Positions 22,283 through 58,700 of a stretch of 64,000 bases of DNA are shown here, in pieces (position 1 is the stretch's first letter; every line of letters starts with the position of its first letter). The stretch is from positions 640,001-704,000 of the forward strand of contig CBDCQT010000013.1 of the NCBI GenBank assembly GCA_965220745.1. The letters are read 5' to 3'. This DNA comes from Alphaproteobacteria bacterium (GTDB lineage Bacteria; Pseudomonadota; Alphaproteobacteria; UBA828). The position numbers and the translations under genes were made by a program. Under the pieces are notes generated by a model. That model saw nothing but the letters and a program-made list of their open reading frames with translations. It was not told where the DNA came from and made no database searches.

Positions 22283-23808
22283 GCGTGCTGACCGTCGGCG
22301 GGCGGCGCTTTGCGGCCGGGCTCTACTGGCTGGAGCGCAAGGGTGCGGCCTCTGTGGCTCGGAACGCGCGGGCCTTCAAGCGTCCCTGGCACGTTCACTG
22401 GGGCGAGCAGACCGGGTACGCGGCGGACGAGGAGAGCCCGAAGGACTGTCCGAGCCTGGCGGCGTCGCTGCAGGCGCGCATCGCGGCCCCCACCTGGATG
22501 GCGCTGGTGGAGGTGGACGACGGGCGCCTTGCGCTGGTGAAGGCCAGGGACGGCGCCTTCCTTGCCGACGGCGACGAGGTGTTTGCCGACCGGGAGGCCG
22601 CGCTTGCGGCCTTCGAGCGTGCCCGCGGCAAGACGGAAAGTTCCACCGTACCCGTGAGTTCCACGGTACCGGAGAGTTCCTCCGTGGGCTGGGCGCTCCA
22701 TGCGACGCCGGGGCTGGTGAAGGACGCGGGAGCGGAGCGTTCCCCCGTAAGCGAGATCGACCCCGCGTCGCTGGCGGACGATCCCGGCATGCGCCTTGCG
22801 GCGGCGCCGCTCTCGACGCTCGGCCTGCCGAAGGTGGGGCGCTTCCTGGCGCTTGCCGTCATGGTGGCGGGCGGCGCCTTCGTGTGGACGCAGCGCGGCA
22901 CGATCTGGGACTTGATCGCCGGACCCGAGGAGGCGGCGGAGGCGGAGCAGGCGCCCGTGGAGCCGCCGGTGACGGCGATACTGGATGCGGGCGCGCTGCT
23001 CGCGGGCTGCCGGCAGGCGCTCATGGCGTATCCGCCGTACCTGCCGGCATGGCGCACGGAGCGCATCTCCTGCGAGGGCCGCTTCGCAGACATCGCGCTC
23101 ATCGGCGTGCGCCCGGAGCTCGAGGACCGGGCGGTGCTCACGGTGCGCTGGCGGCTCGGTTCGGGTCGTCCGGAGCCCCTGCACCGGCGCATCGCCGAGA
23201 CGCACCTCTCCGGATGGTACGCGGCTTCGGTCACGGGGGACCGGGCCTGGGCGGTTGCGCCGCTCGCCCCGGTGCTGCAGCGTTTCGAGGTCGGAGGGGA
23301 ACACCATGGTGCCCCTCCCTCCCTGCTCGACTTCCGCGAGGCGGTGGACCGGCATTTCGGCGCGCGCGGCACCCGCATCGAATACCCCATGCAGGGCGAC
23401 GGCATCGAGTTGCGCGTCACGACCGGTCGCGTGCCCTTTCGCCTCGCAGACGCCATTGCCGCCGTGCCCGGTCTCGAACTCGTGCGGCTCATCCGGGACA
23501 GCGCCGGCGAGTGGCGGCTCGAAGGGCGGCGGGTGTCGCCGGTCTCCATGCCGCGCGAACGCTTCGAGCAGGCGATTCGGCCACTGACTCAGTCAGTGTC
23601 TCAGTCAGTGACTCAGTCACCGGCGCATTCGGTGGCGCAGCCAGTAGCGCAGCCACCGGCAAAGCTGGAAGGCGCGGCCACTGACCTGACCGGCGATGCA
23701 GTCGGCGAAGTCACCGACCCAATCGATGCCGCGGCCACCGGCACGACTGGCAATGCAGCCGGCAGCGCGATCAACCACACGGCCAACGACGGAGGCTCTG
23801 GATCATGA
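22279..23808 (+). CDS. Type IVb pilus assembly protein PilO2-like
   Basis: VGGRRFAAGLYW start, PSLAASL, FLADGDEVF; central TM; follows the secretin. Confidence 0.7.
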   Translation: MSVLTVGGRRFAAGLYWLERKGAASVARNARAFKRPWHVHWGEQTGYAADEESPKDCPSLAASLQARIAAPTWMALVEVDDGRLALVKARDGAFLADGDEVFADREAALAAFERARGKTESSTVPVSSTVPESSSVGWALHATPGLVKDAGAERSPVSEIDPASLADDPGMRLAAAPLSTLGLPKVGRFLALAVMVAGGAFVWTQRGTIWDLIAGPEEAAEAEQAPVEPPVTAILDAGALLAGCRQALMAYPPYLPAWRTERISCEGRFADIALIGVRPELEDRAVLTVRWRLGSGRPEPLHRRIAETHLSGWYAASVTGDRAWAVAPLAPVLQRFEVGGEHHGAPPSLLDFREAVDRHFGARGTRIEYPMQGDGIELRVTTGRVPFRLADAIAAVPGLELVRLIRDSAGEWRLEGRRVSPVSMPRERFEQAIRPLTQSVSQSVTQSPAHSVAQPVAQPPAKLEGAATDLTGDAVGEVTDPIDAAATGTTGNAAGSAINHTANDGGSGS

Positions 23809-25583
23809 GCAAGGGAGCACGCTGCAATCGGCGACATCTGCGTAGACGCATCATGGCGGGTGCGAGCGCGCTCGCGATCAGCGTCGCCATCCACGCAGCG
23901 GCGATAGCGGTGATCACGCCGATGTTGGCGACACCGGCGGCCGCGCAGGAGAGCGAGGAGGTCTACCGCCAGGAGGCGCTGGCCCATGCAAGGGCCATCT
24001 CCGAGGGCTGGCGGCGCCTCGAGGACCACATTCTGCGGCGCTCGACTGCGCCCACGCGCTGGACAGGCTCCGTGCCGCCGGCGTCGACCGGATGGCTGGA
24101 TGCCTGGAACGAGCGGGGAGTAGGGGCGCGCTACTGCGATAACACCCTGCTGGTCTACATGGAGCCCGAGGTCCTCAAGGGCGTGGGTCGCGACCAGCGC
24201 TCGGTGCAGGTGGCGCCCCACCTCTATGCCGCACAGGGGAACACCCTGGTCCAGGGGAACACCCTGGCAGGCGGCCTCGCCGCCCTGCACTGGCTCACGG
24301 GTGCCTCAGGCACATGGGTAGCCGAGGGAACCGCGGGCCGGCCTGATGTGTCCTTGCCGGCATGCCTCTCCGATTCGTCCTTCGGCGGTCCCCTGCCCTT
24401 CGGGCGTGTGGCGCTGGCGGGCGCAGTGCGCGACCCGCACCTCGATCTGCGCGAGCGGATCTCGCACGAGCGCAGCGTGGAGGACTGCCCCGCAGGAACG
24501 CATGGCGAAGGCCGCACCATGACCCGTGAGGTACGGCAGACATACGACGGCAGGGGCGATGCGGTGGGCGATCCCGTCATGGGCTCCTGGCAGGTGTCGA
24601 TCGACGACTGCCGGGCCGACTACAGCGAGTGGGAGCACTACACGCTGGAGTGCAGCTGGCTTGCGGGCCCGCCGCACGACCGGGAGATGACGGGTCAGGA
24701 GATCTGGCGCCGGGAGAAGACGGTAACTGCCGATGGCGTGTCGTGGGGTACGCCGGAGTTCGTCTCGACGAGTTGCTGGGAGGGGCAGGTGCCGGCGCTC
24801 CCGCAGGCCGAGGTGACCGAGACGGTGCGCACCGAGACCACGAGCGGGGCCTGTCCTGCGGGCTACTCGGGCACGGCGGTGCTGACGCGGACGGTGACGA
24901 CGCGGTCCACGACGTGGCCCTGGGACGCCCAGCCCACGGTCCAGGACATCCCCGGCAACTGGATTGCCGACGAGTCGGGGTGCACCCAAGTGGTTCTGCC
25001 TCCCATCCACACGGACGAGTTCACGCCGGGGGGCCCGACGGGTACGGGCACCGGGGGGCCTGGAGACGGCAGTTGCGGGCCAGCACCCGGAGATGGCGGC
25101 GGCTCGGACGGCCCCGGCGACGGCACCTGCTCGGGGCCGGGCGTGGGTCCGGGCGCGGGCAACGGCGGCGGAAACGGCGGCTGCTTCCTCACCGAGGCGG
25201 TGGTGGGCGCGCAGGGCATCGAGGCCGACGACGGCCCGACGCTGACGACGCTGCGCGCCTTCCGCGACCGCTACATGCAAGAGACGCCGGAGCGCCGGGC
25301 GCTGGTGGCCCGCTACTACGAGATCGCACCTCGCATCGTTGCTGCGATCCGGCTGGGGCACGAGGACTGGAACTGGATCGGCACGCAGGTGGACGAGGCG
25401 GTGGCGGCGATCCGCGCCGGTGAGAACGACCATGCCTTCGCCATCTACGTCGCCATGGTGCGCCGCCTGGAGGCGCGCTGGCTCGAGCCGGCGCGGGAGG
25501 CGCCGCAGCAGAGGGTTTCTATGCACCAGGGTGTTCCCCTGCACCAGGGTGTTCCCCTAGACCGGGGTGTTCCCCTGTCATGA
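23805..25583 (+). CDS. Secreted Cys-rich protein with C-terminal CFI-box-CTERM-like domain
   Basis: Signal peptide; CPAG repeats; Gly-rich linker; GGCFLTEAV...LRAFRDRYM...VARYYEIAPRIV. Confidence 0.7.
   Translation: MSKGARCNRRHLRRRIMAGASALAISVAIHAAAIAVITPMLATPAAAQESEEVYRQEALAHARAISEGWRRLEDHILRRSTAPTRWTGSVPPASTGWLDAWNERGVGARYCDNTLLVYMEPEVLKGVGRDQRSVQVAPHLYAAQGNTLVQGNTLAGGLAALHWLTGASGTWVAEGTAGRPDVSLPACLSDSSFGGPLPFGRVALAGAVRDPHLDLRERISHERSVEDCPAGTHGEGRTMTREVRQTYDGRGDAVGDPVMGSWQVSIDDCRADYSEWEHYTLECSWLAGPPHDREMTGQEIWRREKTVTADGVSWGTPEFVSTSCWEGQVPALPQAEVTETVRTETTSGACPAGYSGTAVLTRTVTTRSTTWPWDAQPTVQDIPGNWIADESGCTQVVLPPIHTDEFTPGGPTGTGTGGPGDGSCGPAPGDGGGSDGPGDGTCSGPGVGPGAGNGGGNGGCFLTEAVVGAQGIEADDGPTLTTLRAFRDRYMQETPERRALVARYYEIAPRIVAAIRLGHEDWNWIGTQVDEAVAAIRAGENDHAFAIYVAMVRRLEARWLEPAREAPQQRVSMHQGVPLHQGVPLDRGVPLS
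25524..25577 (-). repeat. 18-bp family A array, 3 units, reverse orientation
   Basis: CACCAGGGTGTTCCCCTG-type units; HQGVPL. Confidence 0.9.
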
Positions 25584-26797
25584 GGGCGCGTCGCACCATG
25601 ATGGGCCTGGCTGCGGCCGCGCTCATGGCGGCGTGCGCGGGAGAGGCAAGTGCACAGTCAGGACCTCCCAACTACAGCTCCCATGATGCGGCGTTCTTCT
25701 CGGAGCTGCTGACCGACCGGGTCTGGCTGCTCGAGCGCCCGAACTCGGCGCAGGCGGGCGACCGGGGTCTGGTCTGGGGCATCCACCATGCGGCCGACGG
25801 CACCGCGCGGGCGTGCATCCACCTCGACGGCGTCTGGCAGGCGCGAATCGACCGCTGGCGGGTGGTCTCGTCGCCCCGCTTCCGGGCCCTCTACAACTAC
25901 CACGACGCCGGCACGGAACCCGATCCCGGCCACGTGAAGGGGCACGTGCCGATCTTCTACGACCCCGGGACGGGCCGGCTCCACAGCGAGAGCGTCGGCG
26001 GAGCCGAAGGCTCGCAGGGCAACTGGTTCGTGCTCTCTCTCGGCTGGGTGCAGGAGAGCTGGCCGCAGGCGCTGAAGGACACTTGTCCCGACCTCGATCT
26101 TCCCGCCGGGTTTTCGGTCAATGCGAAACAGACCTCCGTGCTCATGGAGGAGGCCGTCGCGCAGGATCCCGATGCGGCGCTCCGCACTCATCCGGGCTCG
26201 GAGCTGAGGGCGCCGGGCTCGATTGGGCTGGCGATGACAGGCGGCGGGCCAACGGTGACGGCGGCAGACCTCGCGCGTTTCCTTGCGGCCAACGACGGGC
26301 ACGTGCTCAAGAGCCCGGCGGGAACGCGAATGGTGCTGGTGCTTGGGGCAGAGCGCGACGAGCTGTGGCGGCTGGATGAGCACGGGAACGTAACCGACAC
26401 GGCGGTGCTGCTGCCTTCGGCCGAGGGTGCCGGCATCGCGGCGCAGTGGGAGCGCCTTCCACGCCGTCTGGAGTACCGCCTGGGCGACCCCTTCCCGCTG
26501 CAGCCGACCGGCGAGCGTTATGGGGCGATGGCGCTCACGGACCGCCTGGTCGCCGCGGGCCGGCCCGTCGCGCTGCCGTTCGGAGACATGGGCGACATCC
26601 CGCTGCGCTTCTACGACGGCGGCGCGGCGACGGCGGAAGACGTCCACGGCGGCGAGCTAGGCGGCCGCTGGCGCTGGTCGCGGGGCCATCTCCACGTCTC
26701 GCTCGACGGCATGGCGGAGACGCTGGCCTGGCCCTTGCGCGATCTTGCGCGGCACGTCGGCACGATCCCGGCCTCTTCCGACGGCTCGGCGGAGTGA
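25580..26797 (+). CDS. Hypothetical exported protein
   Basis: Signal peptide; ATGA overlap with upstream gene. Confidence 0.7.
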   Translation: MRARRTMMGLAAAALMAACAGEASAQSGPPNYSSHDAAFFSELLTDRVWLLERPNSAQAGDRGLVWGIHHAADGTARACIHLDGVWQARIDRWRVVSSPRFRALYNYHDAGTEPDPGHVKGHVPIFYDPGTGRLHSESVGGAEGSQGNWFVLSLGWVQESWPQALKDTCPDLDLPAGFSVNAKQTSVLMEEAVAQDPDAALRTHPGSELRAPGSIGLAMTGGGPTVTAADLARFLAANDGHVLKSPAGTRMVLVLGAERDELWRLDEHGNVTDTAVLLPSAEGAGIAAQWERLPRRLEYRLGDPFPLQPTGERYGAMALTDRLVAAGRPVALPFGDMGDIPLRFYDGGAATAEDVHGGELGGRWRWSRGHLHVSLDGMAETLAWPLRDLARHVGTIPASSDGSAE

Positions 26798-26804
26798 ACG
26801 GACG

Positions 26805-27911
26805 ATGAGCGTGCGCCCCCTCCGTTTCGTCTTGCCCGCGGCCATGCTCGCGTCCACCACTCTCTGGGCGAGCACCGCCGCTGCGGGAGGATTGCCGCCC
26901 CTGCCGATAGAGATCGGGGAGATCGCAGAATCGGTCGCCGCGGTCTCGGGGGCGGTCGAAACAGACGCACGGACTGCCGGTGACAATGCCCTTCGGCATG
27001 CGACGCAGCCGTCGGCATCCGGGCCGGCAGAGGAGGCCGCCGGGACCGCCGATGTTCCTGAAGCGGCCAATGCCGCACCCGATGCAGTTGCGAAAGCGCC
27101 GCCGGCGAGCCGTCTGCTTCGCTCCCTGGAGGCGTGGTCTGCGCAGCCGACGATGGCCTCGCCATCGCCCGACGGGGCTTCCGCTGATGTCGGCCGGTCG
27201 GCAGCGGAAGCAGCGATCGGCAGATCACCGGGGAGTTCCCCTGGCCCGGCGCGTTCCGCTGTACCAGGGAGTTCCCCTGTGCCGGGGAGTTCCCCCGTTT
27301 TGCACGGTTGTCCGCGCGCGCTGCTGGCAGCGCTTCTGGGGGAGGCAACCGAGACAGCGGATGCGGTCTCTGCGCTCGCGATCGAGCGGGAGACGCTGGC
27401 GCTCTGCCGTGAGCGCCAGGAGATCGTCAACGGCATCGTGGCGCTGGAGGGCGAGCTGCAGGCGCTGCTGGCCGAAGCGCAGAACACGACGGGAGCGCCT
27501 GATGCAGGTGCCGGCGCAATCGGGCCTGCGGACGCGCCTATAGTTAAGGTGTCGGCGCCGGTCCGCGTGATCGAGGTGCCGGCGCCTGCGCCCCTGCGCG
27601 CGGAGACGGCAGAGGGGGCGACGGCCGCCCCGGCGCCCGCGCCGGAACTCCCCTCATACAGCTGGTTCTCGATCGTCGGCACGGCCGGCGACCTGCGCGC
27701 CGGCGTCAGCGACGGCACCGGGCACGGTGGCACGAATGTCTGGTTCGTGCGCGAGGGCGACCGGCTGCCCGGCGGGGTGACGGTGGCGCGCATCGTCGCC
27801 CGACCTCCGGGCGTGCACGTGGAGGGCGCCGTGGAGGCCGCCCTTCCCTACAGGCCCCGTCCTTCTGGCGTTACCGGCCCGCGCCGGGATGGCAAGGGAG
27901 ACGGATCGTGA
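26805..27911 (+). CDS. PilP-like type IVb pilus biogenesis protein
   Basis: Signal peptide, coiled coil, C-terminal SIVGTAGDLRA...VREGDRLPGGVTVARI domain; upstream of the ATPase. Confidence 0.6.
   Translation: MSVRPLRFVLPAAMLASTTLWASTAAAGGLPPLPIEIGEIAESVAAVSGAVETDARTAGDNALRHATQPSASGPAEEAAGTADVPEAANAAPDAVAKAPPASRLLRSLEAWSAQPTMASPSPDGASADVGRSAAEAAIGRSPGSSPGPARSAVPGSSPVPGSSPVLHGCPRALLAALLGEATETADAVSALAIERETLALCRERQEIVNGIVALEGELQALLAEAQNTTGAPDAGAGAIGPADAPIVKVSAPVRVIEVPAPAPLRAETAEGATAAPAPAPELPSYSWFSIVGTAGDLRAGVSDGTGHGGTNVWFVREGDRLPGGVTVARIVARPPGVHVEGAVEAALPYRPRPSGVTGPRRDGKGDGS
27228..27299 (-). repeat. 18-bp family A array, 4 units, reverse orientation
   Basis: CCRGGGAGTTCCCCTGTG-type units; PGSSPV. 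Confidence 0.9.
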
Positions 27912-29563
27912 AGCGTACCAGGGCGTTCCCCTGTTCCGCCGCAGAGTGGCTGGGCCTGCAGGGGAACGCCCTGATTCCCGCACGGCGTCGGGGTTCCGAG
28001 GGCTCCGGCGGCCTCATCCGCCACCCCGCCATGGACGAGTGGGTCAGGCGCGTCTGCGCCGTGTACGCTGACGGCCGCTGCCTGATCGCCGAAGGCTATG
28101 AGAGCGACCGCAGGCTGCGCGCGGCTCTCATAGAGCTCCGCCGCAACGGCAGTGTCCCCGGCCGACTGATCGAGCGCACCGCCGACCTCGACGAGATCGC
28201 GGCGTGCTGGCGCAGGGCAGCGCATGAGGCGGCGGGCGGCGAGGCGCCTGCAGCGCACAAGGTGCGCACCCTCTTCGAAGAGGCCGCCGCGGCCAAGGCC
28301 AGTGACGTCGTCTTCGAGAACGACGGCGGGCTCTGCCGCGTCCACGGCATCGTCAACGACCGCAAGCTCCAGCTCGCAGCCCCCATGCCAGCAGACGAGG
28401 GCCGCGAGGTCATGGGCTTCCTCTTCCACTGCAAGGACGAGGGATCGGCACAGACCTCGTACCAGAGAAGCGCCTTCCAGGGCTTCTCGGTCCGAGCCGG
28501 CGGCCAGGTGCCGCTGCCCTCGACGGTCTCCGCGCTGCGCTGCCAGCGCGGCCCCCACGAGCCCGACGGCGATCATCTGTTCGCCCGCCTCTTCTACCGT
28601 GACCGTATCGCCAAGGGCACCACTCTGGAGAGCCTCGGCTTCTCTGCAGAGGAGGCGGCGGTGTTCTCGGAGATCCGCATGTCGCTCCGGGGCGGCATCT
28701 TCCTCGGCGGCACGGCGGGGGACGGCAAGTCCACCACGCTGGCTACCAATCTCGCGCTCCAGATGGAGGAGGCGCAGGGCCAGCTCAACGTGGTGACCAT
28801 CGAGGACCCGGTGGAATACCCCATTCCGGGCGCGGTGCAGATCGCGGTGCCCACCACGGGCTCCGGCGAGGAGCGCGGCAGGCACTTCAGGGACGCGCTG
28901 ATGCACTTCTGCAGGGTGCATCCGGCGTCGGGAATGGTGTCCGAGATCAGGGACGCGGACGCGGCCCGGCAGGTGCTGCAGTTCATCGACACCGGCCACC
29001 AGGTGTGGACCACCATCCACGTCCACTCCGCCAACGCGATCCTTTTCCGCCTGCTCGACATGGGGGTGGGCACCGCCGAGGTGTGCAAGCCCGGCAACAT
29101 CGAGCTGCTGATGAAGCAGACCCTGCTTCCCAGGCTCTGCGACGCATGCGCGCTCGAAGAGCCTGCGGGAGGCAAGGCGGTCCCCGACTGGCTGGGGCGG
29201 CATCTCCGCAACTGGCCCGGAGTGCGCTTCCGCAACCCGCAGGGCTGCGAGACCTGCAATCGCGAAGACCGAAGTGTCGTGGCGGGCAAGGCCTGGAACG
29301 GCTACGCGCAGCAGACGGCAATTGCCGAGACCATCCGCCCCGATGCGGCCTACCTCGCCTTCGTGCGCCAGCGCGACCCGGCAGGCGCCTGGGAGCACTG
29401 GGTGACCCATATGGGCGGCAGGCCCATGGGCGAGCGCATCTGGGCGCTGGTGGCGGCCGGCCGTGCGGACCCCTTCGATGCGCTGCGCAAGGGCGCACGG
29501 GTGAACCAGGCGGAGGCCGTGGATGCCTCGCCGCTTCCGGCCTCCGGGGAAGACGCCGCATGA
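27908..29563 (+). CDS. pilQ: Pilus assembly ATPase (PilQ/GspE family)
   Basis: GTAGDGKSTT Walker A, TIEDPVEY, MVSEIRD, TGHQVWTTIH, two CxxC. Confidence 0.9.
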   Translation: MKRTRAFPCSAAEWLGLQGNALIPARRRGSEGSGGLIRHPAMDEWVRRVCAVYADGRCLIAEGYESDRRLRAALIELRRNGSVPGRLIERTADLDEIAACWRRAAHEAAGGEAPAAHKVRTLFEEAAAAKASDVVFENDGGLCRVHGIVNDRKLQLAAPMPADEGREVMGFLFHCKDEGSAQTSYQRSAFQGFSVRAGGQVPLPSTVSALRCQRGPHEPDGDHLFARLFYRDRIAKGTTLESLGFSAEEAAVFSEIRMSLRGGIFLGGTAGDGKSTTLATNLALQMEEAQGQLNVVTIEDPVEYPIPGAVQIAVPTTGSGEERGRHFRDALMHFCRVHPASGMVSEIRDADAARQVLQFIDTGHQVWTTIHVHSANAILFRLLDMGVGTAEVCKPGNIELLMKQTLLPRLCDACALEEPAGGKAVPDWLGRHLRNWPGVRFRNPQGCETCNREDRSVVAGKAWNGYAQQTAIAETIRPDAAYLAFVRQRDPAGAWEHWVTHMGGRPMGERIWALVAAGRADPFDALRKGARVNQAEAVDASPLPASGEDAA

Positions 29564-30609: not shown

Positions 30610-30623
30610 CGGAGGAAAAGGAC

Positions 30624-32470: not shown

Positions 32471-32472
32471 CC

Positions 32473-33684: not shown

Positions 33685-33697
33685 GAGGGCAAGCGCA

Positions 33698-38243: not shown

Positions 38244-38258
38244 GAGGGGAGACGAGCA

Positions 38259-43584: not shown

Positions 43585-43595
43585 GGAGAAACGGC

Positions 43596-44015: not shown

Positions 44016-44046
44016 GAGCCGCGCAACAGATTGGGGAACGAGCCCC

Positions 44047-50057: not shown

Positions 50058-52333
50058 GCATGCGCCTCCTGCGCTTCCTCTTCGCGCCCGAGCTGGGCCG
50101 CTGCCTGGCCGACATGCGCCAAGCCGCCTGGCGCTTGGGCCAGAATGTGCGCGCACTCTCGGACGGGAGTTGTCCCGTAGCAGGGAGTTCCCATGGACCA
50201 GGGAGCTCCCCTGTACCAGGGCGTTGCCCTGCGGCTGACAGAGACCGGCGCTGGAAGCGTCTCCTGGAGCGGGAGCGGCGCCTGCGCACCGTCCTGGGCG
50301 CCGCTCTTTCCGCCGCCGGCTTCGCCTTCGTGTCCCTCGGCGCTTCCGGCCTGGTTTCCGGCGCCGCCGGCGCCCAGACCATCGACCCGGACATATTCGC
50401 GACTGCGGACAACGCCACCCGCGACCTGTTCTCCTTCCTGAGCGACATGGACGTGGCCCGCCACGCCGTCCTCGGCGACATGCTCTTCGTCTTCAACGGC
50501 GGCGTGCTGGTGCTCGCGGGTTTTTTGCTGCTCTGGCACACCGTGGCTGGAACCGTCGACACCGCCCGCACCGGCCGCTGGGGCTTCGGGGCCTGGGAGA
50601 TCGTGCGCATCGTGGCGGCGGTGGCCCTCATGGCCCCGCTTCCGGGGGGCATGAACGGCGCGCAGCACGCCGTGGTCGGATTGGCCACCCTCGGCGGCGA
50701 CTTCGCGGGCGCGGTGTGGACCCCCTTCTCGGAGCAGGCGCTGGGCCGGGGCGATCCCATTGCGCCACGGCCCAAGGCTGCAGCCTGGCGCTCGGCCATA
50801 TCCCGCGTGCTGCTCGCCGAGACCTGCACGCATGTCGCCAACGCCAACGCGCGCCGTATCGGCGACGACCCCTATATAGAGGCGAACGAAGAGCGCGCGG
50901 ACGGCGCGCTGCTGCTCCGCTACGACGGCGACGGCCGGGGCATGCCCCGCGACCTCTGCGGCGCGGTGCGCTTCGACGGCCTCGACGGCGAGGGATCAAG
51001 AGGGATCGCCGCGCACGGCCATCGCAGGGCGATGGAGGGCCTGTTTCCGGCCATTCGCGGTCTGGCCGTCGAGCTGGGAGACCGCTACCTGCCGGGCTCG
51101 CCCGTGCACGGGCAGCCGCTGCCGGACGTCGAGGCTGCCATGAATGCGCGGGGCCTCGCGCTGTCCTATGAGTCCGTCCTTGACGATGCATTGAGCCGCG
51201 CGGCCTCCGAGGAGCGCCTTGCGCTCGAGCGTGCCGTCGCCGAGGACGCGGCGGGCTCGTCGTGGCTCGCGGCCGCAGGCTTCTTCAACACCATCGCGTC
51301 CCGCACCGGCCTCTTCCAGGCCGCAGCCCACAACGTCCCCGACGCAGCGCTTCCCCTGCCCAGCCTCGAGGAGTGGTCGCCGCCGGCTGCGGCGGCGGTC
51401 AAGGGCCTGCTGGGCGCGCTCGCCTCTTCGCGCACCTGGCAACCCGTGTTCTTCGCCGCAGGCGGCGGGGTCGCGGGGACGCTGCCGGCAGCAGGGGGCG
51501 GCAACGGCAGCCTGGTGGCCGGCCTCTTCGAGTTCATCGACCTCGATGCTGTCGTCATCGCCGACAGCGGCAACCCCATCGCCGACCTCGCGGGTTTTGG
51601 GCACGACCTGATTGCCTCTGCATTGAGCGCCATCGGCGCCATCTCCGGCGTCGCCGTGGGCTCCGGTCTGCTGGAATCCATCCCCTTCTTCGGCAAGGGG
51701 CTCGATGCCTTCGAGTCCGTCTGGCGGGTCACCGACGGCTTCGTTTCCACCATCCTCGGCCTCATGCTGATCGCGGGCGCCGTGCTGGCCTTCGTGCTGC
51801 CTGCGCTGCCTTTCATCCGCTTCCTCTTCGGCGTCTTCGGCTGGCTGGTGAACGTGGTGGAGGCGGTGCTCGCCGTCACCGTGTTCGCCGCCGCCCACGT
51901 CACGCGCGGCCAGGAACGTGGACTTGCGGTGCCGGCGACGCGCCAGGGGTGGCTGTTCCTGCCGGGGCTGATCCTGCGCCCGCCCCTGATGCTGTTCGGC
52001 CTCATCCTCGGCTACTTCGTGTTCCTCGCCGCCATCGGCCTGCTCAACGCCATCTGGCTGCCGCAGCTGCGGGACGCGGGCGCCTCGGACGGTCTCGGGC
52101 CGGTCGGCTTCCTCGCGATGCTCACCCTTTACGTGATGCTCTGCTACGCGCTGATGAACGGCGCCTTCAAGCTGATCGACCTGCTGCCTTCTGCGGTCAT
52201 GGAGTGGATCGGCGGGCGCGCCGGCGGCACCGACGACGGCGCGGGCCGTCTTGCGGGCGCCGTCACCGGCGGCATCGCGCGGGCCGGGAGCGGCCGCCTC
52301 ACGGGCCGGCTGCGCGGCGGAAGCGGCGGATAG
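50054..52333 (+). CDS. dotA: DotA/TraY family polytopic membrane protein
   Basis: TVDTARTG..G, SWLAAAGFF, LAFVLPALPFIRF, ILRPPLMLFG, FKLIDLLPSAVMEWIGG. Confidence 0.9.
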   Translation: MSMRLLRFLFAPELGRCLADMRQAAWRLGQNVRALSDGSCPVAGSSHGPGSSPVPGRCPAADRDRRWKRLLERERRLRTVLGAALSAAGFAFVSLGASGLVSGAAGAQTIDPDIFATADNATRDLFSFLSDMDVARHAVLGDMLFVFNGGVLVLAGFLLLWHTVAGTVDTARTGRWGFGAWEIVRIVAAVALMAPLPGGMNGAQHAVVGLATLGGDFAGAVWTPFSEQALGRGDPIAPRPKAAAWRSAISRVLLAETCTHVANANARRIGDDPYIEANEERADGALLLRYDGDGRGMPRDLCGAVRFDGLDGEGSRGIAAHGHRRAMEGLFPAIRGLAVELGDRYLPGSPVHGQPLPDVEAAMNARGLALSYESVLDDALSRAASEERLALERAVAEDAAGSSWLAAAGFFNTIASRTGLFQAAAHNVPDAALPLPSLEEWSPPAAAAVKGLLGALASSRTWQPVFFAAGGGVAGTLPAAGGGNGSLVAGLFEFIDLDAVVIADSGNPIADLAGFGHDLIASALSAIGAISGVAVGSGLLESIPFFGKGLDAFESVWRVTDGFVSTILGLMLIAGAVLAFVLPALPFIRFLFGVFGWLVNVVEAVLAVTVFAAAHVTRGQERGLAVPATRQGWLFLPGLILRPPLMLFGLILGYFVFLAAIGLLNAIWLPQLRDAGASDGLGPVGFLAMLTLYVMLCYALMNGAFKLIDLLPSAVMEWIGGRAGGTDDGAGRLAGAVTGGIARAGSGRLTGRLRGGSGG

Positions 52334-52707
52334 GTCGATGGGAGGCGATACGCGCCGCATGGCCGAAAGTGCGAGCGGCCTTGCCGCCGCCGCAACGACG
52401 CCGGGGACCGCTGCTGGCGGGCGGCCCCCGGTAGAGGGAGATGCACATGAAGAAGTCTCTAAAGGTGATGGTGACGATCATCGCCGAGCGGACGACGACA
52501 GTCAAGCGGCGGCGGAACTGCAACTGGTATCGGCACCTTCGACCGCGCCCGATGCGAACGTAATGACGGCATCTTGCGGAACCCGGTTGCGACTCACTTG
52601 TGAGGAGGCCCGGCGGGCCGGGCTCAAACGATGCCGGGGGCCGCCCCTGGATGGCACCCCCGGCACGTAACGACACAACTCAGCATGACATCACGAGGAT
52701 AGACACG

Positions 52708-53388
52708 ATGACCGAGCAGGAATCTGCCGTCAAGAGCCGCCGCAGGCGCGCACAAGAGAAGCTCACGCCGCCCCCTCGCTGGCCCGGGGATCCGGAGCAG
52801 GTCGAGGGTGTCGACGTGGACTTCGAGGCCGTCGCCCACGTGCTCGCCAACACCTGCCGTTGGGGCGGCCGCACGCGGCGCTTCTACTCGCTCGCCCAGC
52901 ACGCGCTCACCGCCTCGGAGGAGATCGAGGCGCTGGACGGCGTCGCAGACGAAGACCGCCGCACGCTCGCTCTCCATGCACTCCTCATGACTTCGCGCGC
53001 CGCCTGGCTCGGCGACGCGGAGGGAGAACGCCCCGCATCGGCCCGGGCGTCAGCGCTCGCCAGAACCCACGGCGAGGCCATCGACAGGGCCGTGCGCGAG
53101 GCCGCAGGGCTCGATCCGGAGCCCTGCGAGGAGTGGGCCGAGGTGCTGCGCTTTGTCGACCGCATGACCGATGCCGCAGAGAGGCGCGACCTCGGCGTGG
53201 ACAGCGGCGGCTTCCCCTTCCCGCCGCTGCGCCGCGCCATCCGGCCCCTGGCGCCCGAGGCCGCGGCAGAGCGCTGGCTCGCCCGCTTCAGAGAGCTGGC
53301 AGGCTCTTCCCGCTCCGGCGGCGTCCACGCCGGGAGCGATGCAACCGGTGTCCCGGCGGCTGCCGCCGAGGCGGAGGCCTCACGATGA
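52708..53388 (+). CDS. YfbR-like HD-fold protein with degenerate HD motif
   Basis: VAHVLANTCRWGG...FYSLAQH; ALLMTSRAAWLGD where LLHDAxEAYxGD is expected. Confidence 0.7.
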   Translation: MTEQESAVKSRRRRAQEKLTPPPRWPGDPEQVEGVDVDFEAVAHVLANTCRWGGRTRRFYSLAQHALTASEEIEALDGVADEDRRTLALHALLMTSRAAWLGDAEGERPASARASALARTHGEAIDRAVREAAGLDPEPCEEWAEVLRFVDRMTDAAERRDLGVDSGGFPFPPLRRAIRPLAPEAAAERWLARFRELAGSSRSGGVHAGSDATGVPAAAAEAEASR

Positions 53389-55610
53389 CCGGCGTCGGCG
53401 GGGACACCGGCCGCGGGCTCCGGGTCGCCGCCCGGAGCTTCCGCACATGGCTCAGTCTCGGCATGAAGGTCGCAATGGTCGTGATCGCCGCGGGTCTGGG
53501 CGCCGCAATCCACGAAACCTACGAGAAGACCGCCGAGTACGACCGCTACATCGTGGGTGTCCAGGTCATGTCCGAGATCATGCTCGCCCTGCAGTTCGAT
53601 CCGGACAGGGACAGGACGGTCCTTCGTCCGGACGATACGGAGTATGTCGGCAGCCTGGAAGAGATCGCCACGTTCGAGCCCTACCTCCGCCAGCGTGCCC
53701 GAATGGTGGACCGGGCCGTCGACGCTGCAATTCTCGGCGGCGGTATCGGCGCGGGCCTGGCCGTCGCCGCCCTCTTCGGGCTGCACCTCTTGGGGCGAAG
53801 GCTGGGGCGGGGCCGGCGCCTGCGCGGCGGAGAGCTGGTCAGCCGGAGAAAGCTCGCCTGGCGCACCCTGCCGTGGTGGCGGCGCCTGCCGCTGCCTGGC
53901 CGAGGCCCCGAAGCCTGGCCCTACACTATCGCCCGCATCCCCTGGCCGAAGGGAGCCGAGACCCGGCACACGATCGTCTCGGGAACCACCGGATCGGGCA
54001 AGACCGTGCTCATCGCGGACCTCGTGGAGCAGATCCGGAAGAGGGGAGAACGCTGCATCGTCTACGACAAGATGGGCTCCTATACCGAGACCTTCTTCGA
54101 CGAGCACCGGGACGTTCTCCTCAATCCCCTCGACAGGCGGGCACCCCGCTGGTCCCCCTTCCTCGAGGCCCGCACGGCGCGGGATTTCGACACCATGGCG
54201 GCGGCGCTGATCCCCCGACAGAAGGACGCCGCCGATCCCTTCTGGATCACCGCAGCCCGCCAGCTCTTCTCCCACGGCGCCGCCGTCCTCTGGCAAAGGG
54301 GGGAGACGCGTAACCGGGTGCTGGTGGATCACTTGCTCAAGACCGAGCTCAGCGCGCTCGCCGAGGCCATGGAGGGCACGGTGGCGCAGTCCATCGTCGA
54401 TCCCGCCAACCCGAAGACCGCGCTCTCGGTGCGCGCCATGCTCACCGCCAACATCGGCGCCATGGACCTGCTCCCCGACGAGGGCGATCCCTTCTCCATC
54501 CGCGAGTGGATCGAGCAGGACAGCGGAGGCTTCCTGTTCCTCACCTCGAGGGGCGATCAGCACGCGAGCCTGCGGGGCCTGATCTCGACCTGGCTGGAGA
54601 TTGCCGTCAACGCGCTGCTCTCCCTGCCGCGCAAGGACGCGCAAGGCAACGTCCCGGCACGCCGCACCTGGGTGATCCTGGACGAACTTCCCACCCTGCA
54701 TCAGCTTCCCTCCCTTCGTCCCGGCCTCGCGGAGAGCCGCCAGTTCGGGGGGTGCTTCGTCCTGGGGGTCCAGGTGTTCTCTGCGTTGCGCGACCTCTAC
54801 GGCCGCGACGGGGCAGAGACGATCTCGGGCCTCTGCGGCACGCGCGTGGTCCTGGCGGCGCCGGACAAGGACACCTCGGAGTGGTCTGCCGAGAGCCTGG
54901 GCCGTGTGGAGGTCGAGGCTCTCTCCGAGAGCGTGAGCTACGGGACAGGGGGACGCCCTGGTGCCCCGCACGGCGGCGTGTCCCTGAGCACGCGGCGCGA
55001 CCTGCGCCCGCTGGTGCTGCCGTCGGAGGTGTCGCGGCTGGAGAACCTCTCCGGCTATCTCAAGTTCCCCGGTGCCTGGCCGGTCGCACGGATCGGGCTC
55101 GACTACAGGAAGCGAACCGAAGTGGCCAAGCGCTTCGTGCCGAAGGCGGAGCACGGTGGAAGCAGGCGCTGCAGCACGAAGGAGGAGACGGCCGTCCAGG
55201 GCGCTGCCCCCGTGGCCGATGGCGTAACCGGCAGCGACGCCTATCCTGACCCGAAAGCGCGGCAAACCGACCCAACGTCGACGGTGGAGCGAGCGGTTCC
55301 GGCAACCGCTGCACCGGCCGGCCGGGGAGTCGAGAGGGACGCGTCCGAGGCGGAGATGGCTGTCGGCACCGCCGAAACCATATTCGGTGAGCCGGAGACG
55401 CAGGACGAGGCCGACATCCTGGAGCCGGAGGAATGGGTGCGTGGCGGCGAGGTCCCCGGCGACGCCGGCATCGATGCGCCGAACGAGTCCTGCTGGCGGT
55501 CCGAAGTACTGGCTGCCTCGGCGGGCGCGCGGGACGATCGAGGGGAATCGTCAGGCCAGAAGCGAGGCGAGGGCGAGGCGGACGACGCGAGCGGCCGGTG
55601 GCGGCTGTGA
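53385..55610 (+). CDS. traD: Type IV coupling protein, TraD/TrwB type
   Basis: Two N-terminal TM segments; RLRGGEL; GTTGSGKT; VYDKMG; LNPLDRR; ILDELPTLHQL; acidic tail. Confidence 0.92.
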   Translation: MTGVGGDTGRGLRVAARSFRTWLSLGMKVAMVVIAAGLGAAIHETYEKTAEYDRYIVGVQVMSEIMLALQFDPDRDRTVLRPDDTEYVGSLEEIATFEPYLRQRARMVDRAVDAAILGGGIGAGLAVAALFGLHLLGRRLGRGRRLRGGELVSRRKLAWRTLPWWRRLPLPGRGPEAWPYTIARIPWPKGAETRHTIVSGTTGSGKTVLIADLVEQIRKRGERCIVYDKMGSYTETFFDEHRDVLLNPLDRRAPRWSPFLEARTARDFDTMAAALIPRQKDAADPFWITAARQLFSHGAAVLWQRGETRNRVLVDHLLKTELSALAEAMEGTVAQSIVDPANPKTALSVRAMLTANIGAMDLLPDEGDPFSIREWIEQDSGGFLFLTSRGDQHASLRGLISTWLEIAVNALLSLPRKDAQGNVPARRTWVILDELPTLHQLPSLRPGLAESRQFGGCFVLGVQVFSALRDLYGRDGAETISGLCGTRVVLAAPDKDTSEWSAESLGRVEVEALSESVSYGTGGRPGAPHGGVSLSTRRDLRPLVLPSEVSRLENLSGYLKFPGAWPVARIGLDYRKRTEVAKRFVPKAEHGGSRRCSTKEETAVQGAAPVADGVTGSDAYPDPKARQTDPTSTVERAVPATAAPAGRGVERDASEAEMAVGTAETIFGEPETQDEADILEPEEWVRGGEVPGDAGIDAPNESCWRSEVLAASAGARDDRGESSGQKRGEGEADDASGRWRL

Positions 55611-55712
55611 GAATGATGCGTTCCCCTCGGCCCTTCCGCAGCATGGGCACGTCGGGCGCCGGGTCGACCGGTCGGATTGCCGAAGCGGTGAGCAGCGGGT
55701 GAAACGGGTCCG

Positions 55713-58700
55713 ATGGTCGTCTCGATCGGAGCCATCGCCTCCGCCGCGCAGGGCGTGTCGTATTTCGAGCGGGACGGATACTACACGAAGGGGGATCCCC
55801 AACACCTGAATGCAAGCGCCTGGGTCGGCAAAGGCGCGGATGCGCTCGGGCTACGGGGTCCCGTCGAGCCCGATGTATTCCGGGAGATTCTGGAGGGTAT
55901 CGTGCCTGACGGCTCGGGGCGCCGCCTGGGGCGCCCCGAAAAGGACGGCACCGTCACGCATCGCCCCGGCAGGGACCTCACGTTCTCGGCGCCCAAATCC
56001 GTGTCTCTGGCCGCATTGCTCGGCGGTGATGCGAAGGTCGCAGCGGCCCACGATGCCGCGGTGAGGCGCACGCTCGCCTGGCTGGAGGCGACGACGATCC
56101 AGACCCGCATGAGAGATCCGGAGACCGGAATTCTGGTGCGCGCCGGCGGCCAGAAGATGGTGGCCGCCACCTTTCGTCACGAAGTCTCGCGCAACCTCGA
56201 CCCCCAGCTCCATACCCATGCGGTGATCGCAAACATGGTGCAGGGCGAGGACGGGGGAACACCCCGGTCCGGGGGAACGCCCCGGTCCGGCAAGTGGCGC
56301 ACCATGGCCAATGAACCCCTCTACAGGCGCCAGAAGCCGATCGGCATGGTCTACAGGAACGAGCTCGCGCGGGAGCTGCGGGCGCTCGGCTACGAAGTCG
56401 AGAAGACCCACGCCGACGGGCGTTTCGAGATCGCGGGCGTATCGCGGACCGTCGTCGAGGCCTTTTCTTCCCGCCGCGCGGAGATCGAAGCGGCGATGGC
56501 GGCGCGCGGCCTGGGCGATCCGGGCAGCAATCCGCACCTCGCCGAGCGCGCGGCCCTGATGACGCGCGCCCACAAGCGCGACGTGGACAGGGAGGCGCTT
56601 CAACGGAGCTGGCGCGAGCAAGCGGCGTCGCTGGGCTTCTCGGCAGAGGAGGCGATCAAGGCAGCCCGCAGGCAGCGCTCGATGAGCCCCGACGGCTCGG
56701 GACAGGGGGTTGAGGCGCCCCGCGAGCGGAACGCCGCCGGCAAAGAAGGCGCGACCCCGGGTGCGGCACGCGATGCCGGGCTGGCATCCGAGGCGGTGGC
56801 GTGGGCGACGGAGCACCTCTCCGAGCGCGAGGCAGTGTTCGCTCGCTCCGACCTGCTCGCCGCCGCGCTCGCCTGGAAACCGGGCGCCGTCCCCGTCGAG
56901 GCCGCTGGAACGGCTATCGAAGCGGCGCTCCAGGAGGGCCGGCTGCACGCCGCGCCGGGTTACCGGGGAGCTTCCCTCTCTCCGGGAGACGAGGGCCTGA
57001 CCACGGACATCGCGCTCGCCGACGAGCGCGAGACGATCGGCCTCATGCGCAGCGGCCAGGACAGGGGACGGGTGCTGATGCGCCGGCGAAAGGTACGCCA
57101 GCACCTGCACAAGGGACCGCTCACCGGCGGCCAGAGGCAGGCGGTAACCGCGATTCTCTCATCCAGGGATCGGGTCGTGGGCGTGCAGGGCTTCGCCGGC
57201 ACCGGCAAGACGGCCATGCTGAACCGGGCACGCGCGCTCGCGGAGAAGAGCGGATACCGCATGGTCGGGCTCGCACCCTCCGCCTCTGCCGTGCAGACGC
57301 TCGCGGCCGAGTCCGGCATACAGAGCGAGACCCTGCAGGGCTTCCTCGCGCGCAACGCAGGCGTCGCCGAGGGCAGGCTTGCCCGCAAGGCGGCCCGCAA
57401 GATGCGCGAGGACTTCGCGAAGACCGTTCTGGTGGTGGATGAGGGCTCGCTCGCCTCCACCGTCCAGGCCCGCGACCTGCTCAGGATCGCAGACGCCCTG
57501 CACATTCCCAGGGTCGTGCTGGTTGGCGACGAGAAGCAGCTCGACGCCGTCGACGCCGGCAAGCCCTTCGCCCAGTTGCAGCAGGCAGGCATGCAGACGG
57601 CGGTCATGGACCAGATATTGCGCCAGAGGGAGCCTGCGCTGAAGGAGGCGGTCGAGGCCAGTCTCGCAGGCGACGTCCGCACGGCGTTCGAAAAGCTCGG
57701 ATCCAATGTGGCGCAGGTGAAGGCCGACAACATTGCGGGCGCCGTCGCCGCGCGCTGGCTGAGGCTGTCATCGGAGGAACGTGAAAACACCGGCGTGATG
57801 GCGCCGAGCCACGAGCTCCGCGGCGCCATCAACGGCCACATCCGGGAGCGCCTCGCGAGAGAGGGCGCGATCCACGGCCCCACCTTCCACGGCGAGCAGC
57901 TGGTCTCCCGCGGCTACACGCGGGCGGAGAAGGCGCTCGCCGTCAACTATGCGCCCGGCGACGTGGTGACCTTCCACCGCGCCTACAAGCGAATGGGAAT
58001 CGGCAAGGGCGACGAGCGCCGGGTGGTCGAGGTGGACCGTCGCAGCCGCACGGTGGTGTTGGCGGACGCGAGCGGCGGCACCATCGCCTGGAAGCCCGGC
58101 ATGATCGCGGGTCGTCATGGCGGCAGCGAGGTCTACCGTGCGGAGCCCATTGAGCTGCGCGCGGGCGACCGTATGCGCTGGACCCGCAATGACAAGGGCC
58201 TCGGGCTGGTGAACGGCCGCACTGCCGAAGTGGTCTCGGTGAGCGCCGACCGCGTCTCCTTGCTGCTGGAGGACGGGCGGACGCTCGCGCTCGACAAGGA
58301 TGCCCCGCAGCTGCGCCATCTCGACCACGCCTGGGCTTCGACCGTGCACGCGTTCCAGGGACGCACGGTCGACAGGGTGATTGCCGCGATGGAGGCCAAC
58401 CACCCGCACCTGACGACGCAGAAGAGCTTCTATGTCGAGATCAGCCGGGCGCGCGACCAGGCCGAACTCGTGACGGACGACGTGGTGCGGCTACGGGAGC
58501 GGCTCGAGGCCACGACAGGCGAACGGATCGCTGCGCTGGAAGCGGTTACGCCGAAGAATCGGGACGCAACGGCGAAGGCAGCCGAGGCGACCGGCGAATT
58601 GCCGGCACACACGATGCCCGCGCGCTCGGACGCGGGCGTCAGGCCGCAGGCGGATCGAGGCGCGCCGTTGGACAAACAGACCGAACCGGGTGGCAGGGAA

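Follow-up and report, generated by a model that had tools for sequence, protein, structure and literature searches.

The 64,000-nucleotide stretch analysed here (the window, G000:C13:640001-704000) belongs to an alphaproteobacterial genome (G000) of 4.82 Mb, with 67% G+C and 13 contigs, and carries an integrative conjugative element (ICE) whose transfer genes are interspersed with an 18-bp hairpin-forming unit (family A) and with a second, unrelated unit of the same length (family B). Alignments with related ICEs suggest that units entered these genes in frame as exact insertions, and slippage and template switching promoted by their hairpins could account for the spread.

Gene content of the host element

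The ICE extends from about 13.2 kb of the window to past the window end, and its genes at 13963..58778 (+ strand) were outlined by Pfam matches and by a frame plot, in which + strand coding runs without interruption from 20 to 59 kb. Gene starts are approximate, being taken from a codon-usage caller and the ends of open reading frames (ORFs). A tyrosine integrase (Phage_integrase, 13963-15117) is followed by two insertion sequences (ISs) of the DDE_Tnp_1 type (15563-16891) and the IS110 type (17317-18366), an S24 repressor-like gene (18779-19522, - strand) and a gene for an HTH_17 protein (19974-20690), all from Pfam matches. The two ISs thus sit between the integrase and the repressor/excisionase-like genes, and regulation or excision may be affected.

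The pilus genes are of the IncI-like type IV kind (secretin-N, T2SSE ATPase, PilS prepilin, two Shufflon_N PilV-like genes and prepilin peptidase/TcpQ), and the type IVB secretion core is Dot/Icm-like (DotD, TraI/DotC, a DotB-like ATPase, DotI, DotH and a TrbI-like DotG), with a single-stranded DNA-binding protein besides. A TrwB-type coupling protein (TrwB_AAD_bind, 53385-55610, + strand) and a TrwC relaxase-helicase (55713-58778, + strand) were likewise identified by Pfam. Matches to DotD, T4SS_TraI, T2SSE, DotI/IcmL, DotH/IcmK, PilS, TcpQ, TrwB_AAD_bind, TrwC and Phage_integrase were above the Pfam cut-off, and those to TrbI and Shufflon_N were weak or near it. With integrase, type IVB core, pilus, TrwB and TrwC in one block, the element appears from its domain content to be an ICE of mating-pair formation type I (MPF-I, IncI/Dot-Icm-like) with a relaxase of mobilisation family F (MOB-F). 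A hairpin at 52632..52665 (+ strand; TGCCGGGGG-N16-CCCCCGGCA, inverted repeat of 9 nt, 100% complementary) lies upstream of g29 (52708-53388), the gene in the trwA position, and by this position could be the origin of transfer (oriT); it is conserved in four ICE copies, is not a copy of the repeat, and 52401-52431 was noted alongside it. On the 3' side of the relaxase, Pfam matches mark a zeta/AAA_33-like gene, then a SLOG-domain gene, and a DUF7146-Toprim primase-like gene that begins at 63799 and crosses the window end.

Abundance and confinement of the family A unit

The unit CAGGGGAACNCCCYGGTN was found in 33 copies in the window against 0.21 expected, counted with the pattern CAGGGGAACACCCYGGTC at up to three mismatches; dinucleotide shuffles gave 0.21 ± 0.48 matches with a maximum of 2, and none of 100 shuffles reached 33. 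Tandem Repeats Finder (TRF) returned period-18 arrays at 22639, 25522, 27227, 31685, 35002, 36009, 45397, 48720, 50165 and 56252. Over the whole genome there were 50 matches at three mismatches or fewer, 37 of them in C13:663-737 kb. A position weight matrix (PWM), built from the copies found in the window and genome, placed 38 of 41 genome matches scoring at least 20, and all 30 scoring at least 22, within 72 kb of ICE-family DNA, which comprises the ICE, a remnant at 731-737 kb, two orphan relaxases on C3 and fragments on C1, C5 and C12; the reversed PWM gave no match at either threshold. Chance or base composition as the source of the repeats is ruled out by the dinucleotide shuffles, the reversed PWM and the reversed pattern in 61 genomes.

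Copies in the window lie within ORFs or at ORF junctions, in at least 15 genes over 34 kb from g03 to the relaxase, and the genes concerned are the + strand pilus, type IVB secretion, coupling-protein and relaxase genes. Window positions 1-22600, which hold chromosomal genes, the integrase, the IS elements and the regulators, contain no copy at PWM 12 or above, and none was found in the regulatory intergenic region or other non-coding parts of the ICE. Elsewhere in G000, units are also present in a second relaxase/coupling-protein remnant and in an orphan relaxase of the same family; they were found only in genes of this ICE family (64% identity or more) and not in the TrwC elements of about 41% identity that the genome also contains.

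An earlier note on this DNA had described a dispersed 18-bp quasi-palindromic unit, missing from the chromosomal 13 kb and the IS elements, and both points are borne out by these counts. Of the 22 places that it named, 20 have a unit, whether good or degenerate but still recognisable; the one at 54642 is a weak copy (PWM 7.6, where the highest background score in 150 control stretches was 9.5), and 58590 (PWM -4.1) is not a copy. A PWM match at 54477 was rejected as an insertion, being a native conserved DEGDPF segment that all homologues have.

Within the genus, 17 of 20 other genomes (18/21 with G000) contain the motif, with up to 72 copies, whereas 9 of 40 genomes outside the genus had one match each and none had more; the reversed-pattern control gave 0-1 match per genome. 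Relatives of the relaxase were found in public metagenome-assembled genomes of several phyla (e.g., Rhodospirillales, Candidatus Poriferihabitaceae, Binatia and Nitrospinota), and among 80 loci scanned out of 258 relatives reported by the search, seven had at least three motif copies, five had one and 68 had none, so that only the closest loci carry the motif. Equivalent repeats in the distant ICE relatives were looked for and discarded, since the large repeat families at those loci are CRISPR arrays or ordinary tandem repeats. A long, regularly spaced array with a period of 61-72 bp and up to 67 repeats lies within a few kb of the relaxase gene in several such relatives; CRISPR-looking arrays of this kind sit on or next to the elements at L034 (13352-17720), L065 (14926-18648), L086 (2117-4400), L045, L044, L038 and L067, downstream of the relaxase in most loci and upstream in L086 and L067.

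Conservation at the DNA level

All genes from 20 to 59 kb are on the + strand, and within them the unit is read in five of the six possible phases. In + orientation it gives QGNTLV, GEHPGP/GDHPGP and GGTPR[NS], the last often spelled RGTPW[SY] in related ICEs, and in - orientation [DH]QGVPL and PGSSPV; the sixth phase (TRxFP) occurs only at 27916, at the junction of two genes, where it is doubtful that the DNA is coding. Inspection of the consensus shows tandem units to be free of stop codons in five frames; the sixth frame has one only in a rare variant, with T as the variable last base.

Given these readings, it could be asked whether the repeats are selected as flexible Gly/Pro-rich peptide linkers, with the DNA likeness as a by-product of codon bias in a 70% G+C element. 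The encoded peptides are indeed all small, polar and Gly/Pro-rich, and they are located in turns, linkers and termini. Nevertheless, one DNA sequence in five phases yields unrelated peptides, both orientations occur inside genes of a single strand, and synonymous-codon shuffles of 29 transfer genes, which preserve every peptide and the codon usage, retain only 4.1 ± 1.7 copies (maximum 11 in 200 shuffles) compared with 39 observed. Conservation of the unit is therefore at the DNA level, selection on the peptides is contradicted by both the shuffles and the five phases, and the linker explanation appears very improbable. The earlier claims of different frames, both orientations and conservation at the DNA or RNA level agree with the analysis; the motif exceeds a codon-shuffled background and, from the PWM scan above, is not equally common genome-wide.

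Insertion polymorphism among related elements

Six further ICE copies from five genomes of the genus were compared with the ICE of the window, 29 genes being aligned codon by codon; the seven ICEs are a sample of the many in the genus, and the relatives are not independent. Family A copies at two mismatches or fewer numbered 46 in G000, 35 in G020, 28 in G005a, 37 in G005b, 22 in G011, 2 in G003 and 0 in G016. These formed 46 site clusters. At 33 of them, at least one other ICE whose flanks align well shows a clean internal gap (6n residues), and 14 sites occur in one ICE only, with six ICEs having 1-4 such private sites each. The 13 clusters without a demonstrated indel fall at termini or where the alignment is poor, or reflect chance matches to conserved residues. 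Because of the 33 clean indels, the 14 private sites and one ICE without any copy, family A is an insertion-polymorphic repeat, and recurrent gain is the parsimonious reading of the sites, since ancestral presence would demand many parallel precise deletions.

Among the pilus genes, a degenerate array of about 2.6 units in g03 (22639..22685, - strand; TRF period 18, PWM 3-11; SSTVPV) aligns with PGSSPV arrays of G005a and G005b, and G016 and G011 have a 30-residue gap there (g03 column 123). Further along g03, a single unit (23294..23311, +; PWM 20.0; GEHHGA) corresponds to a 6-residue gap in G020, G016, G011 and G003 (column 367). Two units in g04 (24234..24269, +; 0 and 2 mismatches; QGNTLV QGNTLA) occupy a site at which other ICEs hold 0, 1 or 2 units (column 171), and three more (25524..25577, -; HQGVPL twice and DRGVPL) cover the g04 C-terminus where it overlaps the g05 start, a stretch before which the other ICE copies of g04 stop (column 659). 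The four units in g06 (27226..27297, -; one degenerate; PGSSPV) are common to G005a and G005b and not found in G020 or G011 (column 231). At the g06/pilQ junction, an inverted pair (27916-27933, -, and 27959-27976, +, the latter QGNALI; PWM 27.4 and 23.3) recurs in G020 at 10156/10199.

The first PilV-like gene has two units (31686..31721, -; PGSLPG PGRSPV) where other ICEs have 0-2, and the distant G003 ICE carries a near-identical unit at the same place. There, the unit is 17/18 identical between ICEs with flanks only 65-67% identical, which suggests a hot spot, gene conversion or local selection. About 4.4 units of the GATC-loop variant in the prepilin-peptidase/TcpQ-like gene (35001..35080, -; TRF; PWM 21.6 and 25.9; YQGDPL to DQGDPL) are missing from the other six ICE copies (column 345).

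Within the type IVB genes, DotD contains one good and one degenerate unit (35721..35756, -; PWM 22.1 and 11.3; AGSSPV PGSSPV), at a site with 0 to 3 units in other ICEs (DotD column 108), and about eight units in a C-terminal extension (36009..36151, +; TRF 6.8 copies, 96% matches; GEHPGP followed by four GDHPGP and others). Four consecutive identical units at 36027-36098 make this extension look recently expanded, and the same site (column 216) has two units in G020, one in G005b and none scored in G005a, G016, G011 and G003. A single GATC-loop unit in g18 (39739..39756, -; PWM 21.3; DEGDPL) lies in a poorly alignable region. In DotH, a single unit private to this ICE (41754..41771, +; PWM 13.8; DGGTSL) faces a clean 18-bp gap in all six other ICEs (column 333), and three degenerate units at the DotH C-terminus and DotG start (41821..41874, -; PWM 16.8 and 15.6) face an 18-residue gap in G020, G016, G011, G005b and G003 (DotH column 356).

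The 1045-aa gene g24 could be compared with 16 full-length homologues in the genus, which revealed four sites, two of them private (columns 242-248 in G019_C286 and columns 844-850 in G000). Its array of about 5.8 units (45397..45500, +; TRF 5.1 copies; GGTPRN three times and others; columns 468-504) is matched only by one unit in G011_C3; eight close homologues have no insert and seven distant ones have an unrelated short sequence. The private single unit (46469..46486, -; APGRSP) corresponds to a clean 18-bp gap in 15/15 other full-length homologues, and both G000 inserts are absent even from the sister copy G015_C95. Five diverged units at the g26 C-terminus (48721..48810, -; DQGIPL to YQGVPV) vary from 0 to 8 in other ICEs (column 183), and four units at the g27/g28 junction, in the N-terminus of the long g28 ORF (50160..50231, -), vary from 0 to 5 (g28 column 38).

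The coupling protein has a single private unit (54946..54963, +; PWM 20.9; TGGRPG) with a clean 18-bp gap in 5/5 other ICEs (column 555). In the relaxase, two units after residue 180 of the relaxase domain (56252..56287, +; GGTPRS GGTPRS) follow the HxH motif; among 18 relaxases the insert at this place is 12 residues in four, six in one and none in 13, and the solved TrwC of R388 (PDB 1omh) has a 12-residue gap exactly here. A structural model puts the insert in a coil between two strands, as weak support only because the mean predicted local distance difference test score (pLDDT) is 52.4. A further degenerate unit (56961..56978, -; PWM 14.6; YRGASL), also private, faces a 6-residue gap in 17/17 other relaxases.

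The alignments agree with the clean 6n-residue insertions that had been predicted, and so does the 12-residue gap in 1omh. The earlier suggestion of a frame-preserving selfish micro-element, conceptually like Rickettsia palindromic elements, is supported, with 33 of 46 sites as clean 18n-bp insertions and 14 private; the word selfish needs qualification, in that no transposase was found and family B apparently comes from a native gene segment.

Hairpin anatomy and junctions

The consensus of 167 copies, flanks included, reads [N A] C A G G G G A A C N C C C Y G G T [C/A/G] C, and the best phasing is C|AGGGGAACNCCCYGGTN|C, with a 6-bp stem CCAGGG/CCCTGG and a 5-nt loop GAACN. The loop GAAC/GTTC is near-invariant, with GATC as an occurring variant. 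In arrays, a second dyad CCCTGG-T-CCAGGG links neighbouring units, as the earlier note had pointed out for tandem copies. Stem positions 2/14 pair as A-T in 94 copies, G-C in 25, A-C in 39 and G-T in 5, and positions 3/13 as G-C in 146, A-T in 7, A-C in 4 and G-T in 4. DNA folds gave z-scores of -2.1 to -4.0, with two units at about -3.9 on either strand.

Since segment starts and ends cluster by phase, the unit has defined borders: 62 of 97 repeat segments start at unit phase 0-2, and ends are mostly at phase 14-0. The base before the first unit is A in 61/100 cases (background 13%), giving NAC|AGGGG, the last unit ends T[C/A/G]C in 68/100, and C follows the last unit in 76/100. At 14 filled/empty junctions inspected by eye, the insert is AGGGGAACNCCCYGGTNC after C, usually AC; no target-site duplication beyond this constant C was found, and the ambiguity is usually 1 nt, the constant C itself, with occasionally 2-6 nt of unit-matching homology. 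The PilQ insert of G005b, for instance, sits at a pre-existing AGGGGAA with 6 nt of homology. An extended palindrome made of flank and unit end, present at 46469, was not general across these junctions and was dropped as a rule of insertion.

This anatomy raises the possibility that the units are functional sites under selection, as candidate palindromic protein-binding sites (for silencing, partition or coating of single-stranded DNA) or as hairpins of the T-strand or mRNA. The 6-5-6 and 6-1-6 dyads match in size the sites of dimeric DNA-binding proteins, the stems are maintained by compensated changes, the loop is nearly invariant, and the longest arrays are at operon gene junctions (25524, 36009, 41821, 48721 and 50160). 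Moreover, orthologous units are at least as conserved as the coding flanks (84% identity compared with 73% at synonymous third positions of the flanks, 70 pairs), a comparison biased by the PWM filter because both units had to pass it. Against such a role, promoters, other non-coding DNA and the integrase, regulator and cargo regions of the ICE are free of copies, sister ICEs differ in their sites and copy numbers, one ICE of the family has none at all, and the unrelated family B unit behaves alike. The A-C combination, which is G-U on the other strand, is equally frequent in the two orientations (15/61 and 24/106), so that a hairpin selected strand-specifically in RNA or T-strand is rejected, and no Rfam family matches the unit. 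The other alternative of the earlier note, an array of protein-binding sites possibly bound by the Cro/Xis-like protein, has no positive support. Taken together, selection for function seems distinctly doubtful as the reason why the units are kept, and the same low probability is given to the individual hairpin roles of priming, nuclease protection or translational pausing at gene junctions.

A second hairpin family

Family B has the 18-bp unit CACCC-CTNC-GGGTG-GNNN. Three units of the TPSGGG type span the DotC C-terminus and DotB start (36978..37031, +; TRF 3.2 copies, 89% matches), single units are at DotB site 1 (37268..37285, +) and DotB site 2 (37976..37993, +, in the native N-P-x-G-G-R-T segment), and three more at the g22/g23 junction are read in another frame as ATPLRV (43612..43665, +; TRF 3.2 copies), one of them with a compensated C>T / G>A stem pair. 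The family is thus read in at least two frames, its copy number differs between ICEs, and four kinds of compensated stem changes were seen. Copies with 0-1 mismatch in G000 are all in the ICE, and seven matches with two mismatches are elsewhere; the five repeat-rich ICEs have 6-17 copies each, G003 has none and G016 has two matches with two mismatches.

A clean 72-bp gap marks DotB site 1 in the repeat-poor G016 and G003, and the others have 1-3 clear units plus degenerate ones there. At DotB site 2, G016 and G003 hold one native B-like stretch (N-P-R/A-G-G-R-T) and the other ICEs 1 to about 5 units. Because the repeat-poor ICEs carry a single unit-like stretch where others have arrays, family B looks home-grown, in that a native 18-bp segment of the dotB-like gene could have been duplicated and then copied to other sites. 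Most inserts have CAC(C/T) directly behind them, the bases with which the family B unit itself begins, and two ICEs have a family B unit within the loop of a family A unit, with a 5-nt match on each side (e.g., G005a 19927).

The G003 ICE lineage has another short G+C-rich quasi-palindrome, GAGACCCTCGGGCCG, often followed by GGAG and mostly at gene junctions (7594, 12232, 13034, 17382, 17824 and 19613 in the joined coordinates of L140-L142), which may be a third family or a translational-coupling element. The transfer genes of the ICE are in general rich in short coding repeats; further in-frame tandem repeats lie at 38541-38609, 39177-39221, 23585-23619 and 29916-29967, and comprise 15-bp units in 4.6 and 3 copies, a 12-bp palindromic TGACTCAGTCAG in 2.9 copies and an 18-bp unit in two.

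Enzymes that could move the units

The ICE-restricted enrichment, the DNA-level conservation, the indel polymorphism with private sites, the fixed phase, the compensated stems and the lack of Y1 transposases are the features that the analysis demonstrates. Mobilisation by RAYT (the tyrosine transposase associated with repetitive extragenic palindromes) or by IS200 was rejected, as Y1_Tnp (PF01797) was found in 0/21 genomes of the genus in a search whose control was positive in 6 of 14 known genomes. IS91 targets GTTC/CTTG, and it was considered because this target resembles the loops GTTC of family A and CTTC of family B. However, Y2_Tnp (PF04986) occurs in only 3/21 genomes, and in G000 only on contig C8, compared with the motif in 18/21, so that IS91-type mobilisation was likewise rejected as not tracking the repeat; thus neither IS200/IS605- nor IS91-type transposition has its transposase co-occurring with the units. 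Telomerase-like or DRT-like reverse transcription was set aside because RVT_1 is absent from the motif-bearing G015 and G019 (both motif-rich), G001 and G003, and the ICE has no reverse transcriptase, so that the co-occurring enzyme expected of retroelement-made repeats is also missing. The 7.9-Mb genome G011 has undergone a massive expansion of such genes, with 97 IS91-type Y2 transposase and 57 reverse-transcriptase (group II intron-like) matches. A general host activity acting on any conjugative single strand is unlikely, since units are only in this ICE family and not in the TrwC elements of about 41% identity in the same cell.

Relaxases of the TrwC type possess two catalytic tyrosines and are able to join DNA at targets like oriT. 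The unit might be a minimal transposon of single-stranded DNA that depends on an HUH enzyme for its movement, most plausibly on the two-tyrosine TrwC relaxase of the ICE itself, though we regard this as unlikely, and equally so its detailed form, in which the hairpin would be recognised on single-stranded DNA, cut after ...TNC at two unit boundaries and the 18 nt pasted after ...AC. The fixed unit phase, the constant C|A or C|G junction, the AC left flank of 61/100 first units and a target duplication of at most 1 nt at the 14 junctions would all suit such an enzyme, compensated stems are expected of hairpin recognition, and with Y1 absent and Y2 not tracking, the relaxase is the only HUH enzyme found travelling with the repeat. 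Units are also strictly limited to elements with this relaxase family, and the stem of the candidate oriT hairpin (CCGGGGG/CCCCCGG) is like the G-variant of the family A unit, a resemblance that is weak in 70% G+C DNA. On the other hand, families A and B are unrelated and the enzyme would need to recognise both, family B is apparently native with junction homology of 4 nt or longer, the G016 ICE lacks units although its relaxase belongs to the family, and family A occurs in both orientations (61 to 106) although only one strand is transferred. Insertion without duplication at a short fixed target beside a hairpin, typical of HUH transposition, would be compatible with the AC flank (61/100) and the constant C seen here, which fit microhomology equally. 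A bolder form, quite unlikely, would make the units single-strand 'nano-transposons', the smallest mobile DNA known that looks autonomous, with the relaxase borrowed from the ICE during transfer; if true, a conjugative element would carry an intragenic parasite that rewrites the loops of its transfer machinery with every passage.

Proposed slippage and template switching

Hairpin slippage combined with microhomology-guided template switching within the ICE is the explanation that we favour and consider, on balance, probable; as the best reading of the evidence, it is ranked ahead of cut-and-paste by the relaxase. Accordingly, two hairpin micro-repeats would multiply in the backbone genes of one ICE lineage in one alphaproteobacterial genus, with new copies entering as exact 18n-bp insertions and later expanding or contracting as tandem arrays, and a dedicated transposase would be unnecessary. 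Hairpins could promote replication slippage, which would give rise to arrays, as well as template switching guided by microhomology, which would found new sites. This microhomology would be 1-2 nt (C or AC) for family A and about 4 nt (CACC) for family B, sometimes reaching 6-10 nt. The switch would lead from an existing copy to another place in the same or a homologous ICE, plausibly while the DNA is single-stranded during rolling-circle or conjugative replication. Whole units would be inserted because the nascent end after one period is again ...NC, like the original ...AC. Family B could have been born in situ from the dotB-like codon stretch N-P-x-G-G-R-T and copied elsewhere afterwards. 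Units would survive because 18 is a multiple of three, helped by stop-free frames and by Gly/Pro/Ser/Thr-rich stretches that could be tolerated in turns, linkers and gene ends. Template switching would thus account for the homology found at junctions, for family B having a native origin and for units being confined to lineages in which copies already existed.

Several points weigh against this explanation. The mechanism rests on inference, no event having been caught in the act, and the microhomology of family A, usually 1-2 nt at the 14 junctions, is little above chance apart from the constant C, while a constant, cleavage-like C|A junction fits an enzyme at least as well. Template switching alone leaves unexplained why only families A and B spread, and why no units are in the integrase/regulator and cargo parts, where about 11 kb at 0.6 sites per kb would by rough arithmetic hold about seven sites and none reaches PWM 12. 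In addition, 51 of 54 family B units share one orientation (+), a bias not expected from simple slippage; relaxases only 64% identical have the same site filled, for which a hot spot, gene conversion or old age must be invoked; and the orthologous units compared above, subject to the filter noted there, have no visible decay.

Comparison with known repeats

Palindromic repeats that sit in frame within genes have been described in Rickettsia and for some families of repetitive extragenic palindromes (REPs), and how they arrive without destroying the gene is still debated. According to PMC3733652, intragenic GTAG/CGTC REPs occur in several species as singles, dimers and clusters in frame; the Rickettsia palindromic elements (RPEs) RPE-4/-6 and the link to RAYT are described there too, and REPs are 20-40 bp long. 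Our unit resembles REPs and RPEs as a short G+C-rich palindrome in frame inside functional genes, adding residues without breaking the gene, and like a REP it is an imperfect palindrome that forms a stem-loop. It differs in its length of 18 bp, below the REP range given there, in the ends CAGG... and ...GGT[C/A/G] of the 167 units, with no GTAG or CGTC tag, and in the lack of a RAYT/Y1 transposase in the 21 genomes. REPs are also chromosome-wide and mostly extragenic, whereas the unit is intragenic or at gene junctions and kept to one ICE family (38/41 strong copies), and two families share one period here. With RPEs it shares in-frame palindromic inserts in many unrelated genes (pilus, type IVB secretion, coupling protein and relaxase). 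RPE units are of the order of 100-150 bp, compared with which 18 bp is far shorter.

Palindromic amphipathic repeat coding elements (PARCELs), as described in PMC2996958, are tandem coding repeats of 25 residues with DNA dyad symmetry that are associated with mobile elements and proposed to travel within as well as between genomes; on that description they build their own repeat proteins with an amphipathic fold, unlike the 6-residue inserts in conserved unrelated proteins seen here. [quoted passage not shown] The unit differs from MITEs in being 18 bp long, in lacking a variable duplicated target at the 14 junctions and in having no transposase. MITEs for their part make target duplications and depend on a cognate transposase.

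Arrays made by minisatellite slippage and templated insertions are closer, with varying copy number, runs of identical units and junctions that share bases with the unit, but ordinary slippage would not place one unit at dozens of unrelated positions and in either orientation, and in this respect the dispersal is transposon-like. Dispersed dyad sites are known on plasmids as the KorB operators of RK2 and parS-type sites, and sfx sites mark the IncI shufflon in the 3' segments of pilV. The likeness lies in many short dyads on a conjugative element, here also with an IncI-like pilV matched by Shufflon_N. Such sites are, however, not tandem in-frame coding inserts, whereas the units are spread over at least 15 genes, and unlike sfx, only one of their sites is in a PilV-like gene and the rest are spread over 34 kb; the Rci gene was not searched for. 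In the literature collection searched, we found no description of 18-bp in-frame repeats in conjugative elements, although Additional file 3 of PMC3733652 (intragenic REPs) could hold related cases. The 18-bp unit is one of the smallest self-spreading repeats seen inside genes, and it is distinctive among intragenic repeats in its very small size, its two families, its confinement to an ICE, the lack of a transposase and the traceable origin of one family.

Neighbouring mobile DNA

On the window scale, two tandem integrases follow directly after the ICE at 66.0-68.5 kb (C13:706044-708494), and a reversed TrwC and TrwB remnant, also with family A units, lies at 91.5-97.2 kb (C13:731551-737172). 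Next comes a 1359-aa MmeI/Eco57I-like restriction-modification gene (C13:739366-743445). Together, the ICE, integrases, TrwC/TrwB remnant and restriction-modification gene form an island of stacked mobile elements on C13 (loci L001 and L002). The genome has 14 TrwC-relaxase matches on C3, C5, C10, C12 and C13, orphans and fragments among them, which is an unusually heavy load of conjugative or mobilisable DNA.

Implications

Being compact and bounded by the ICE, with a repeat-free relative as control, private insertions, no classical transposase and a visible birthplace, the case is experimentally approachable, and it would allow replication errors on single-stranded conjugative DNA to be set against the relaxase. 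The six residues added by each unit are harmless, and conjugation proteins, namely the relaxase, the coupling protein and DotB/C/D/G/H, tolerate 6-48 extra residues at defined places. This amounts to a map of permissive sites in the transfer machinery, which annotation pipelines could use to recognise inserts instead of calling divergence.

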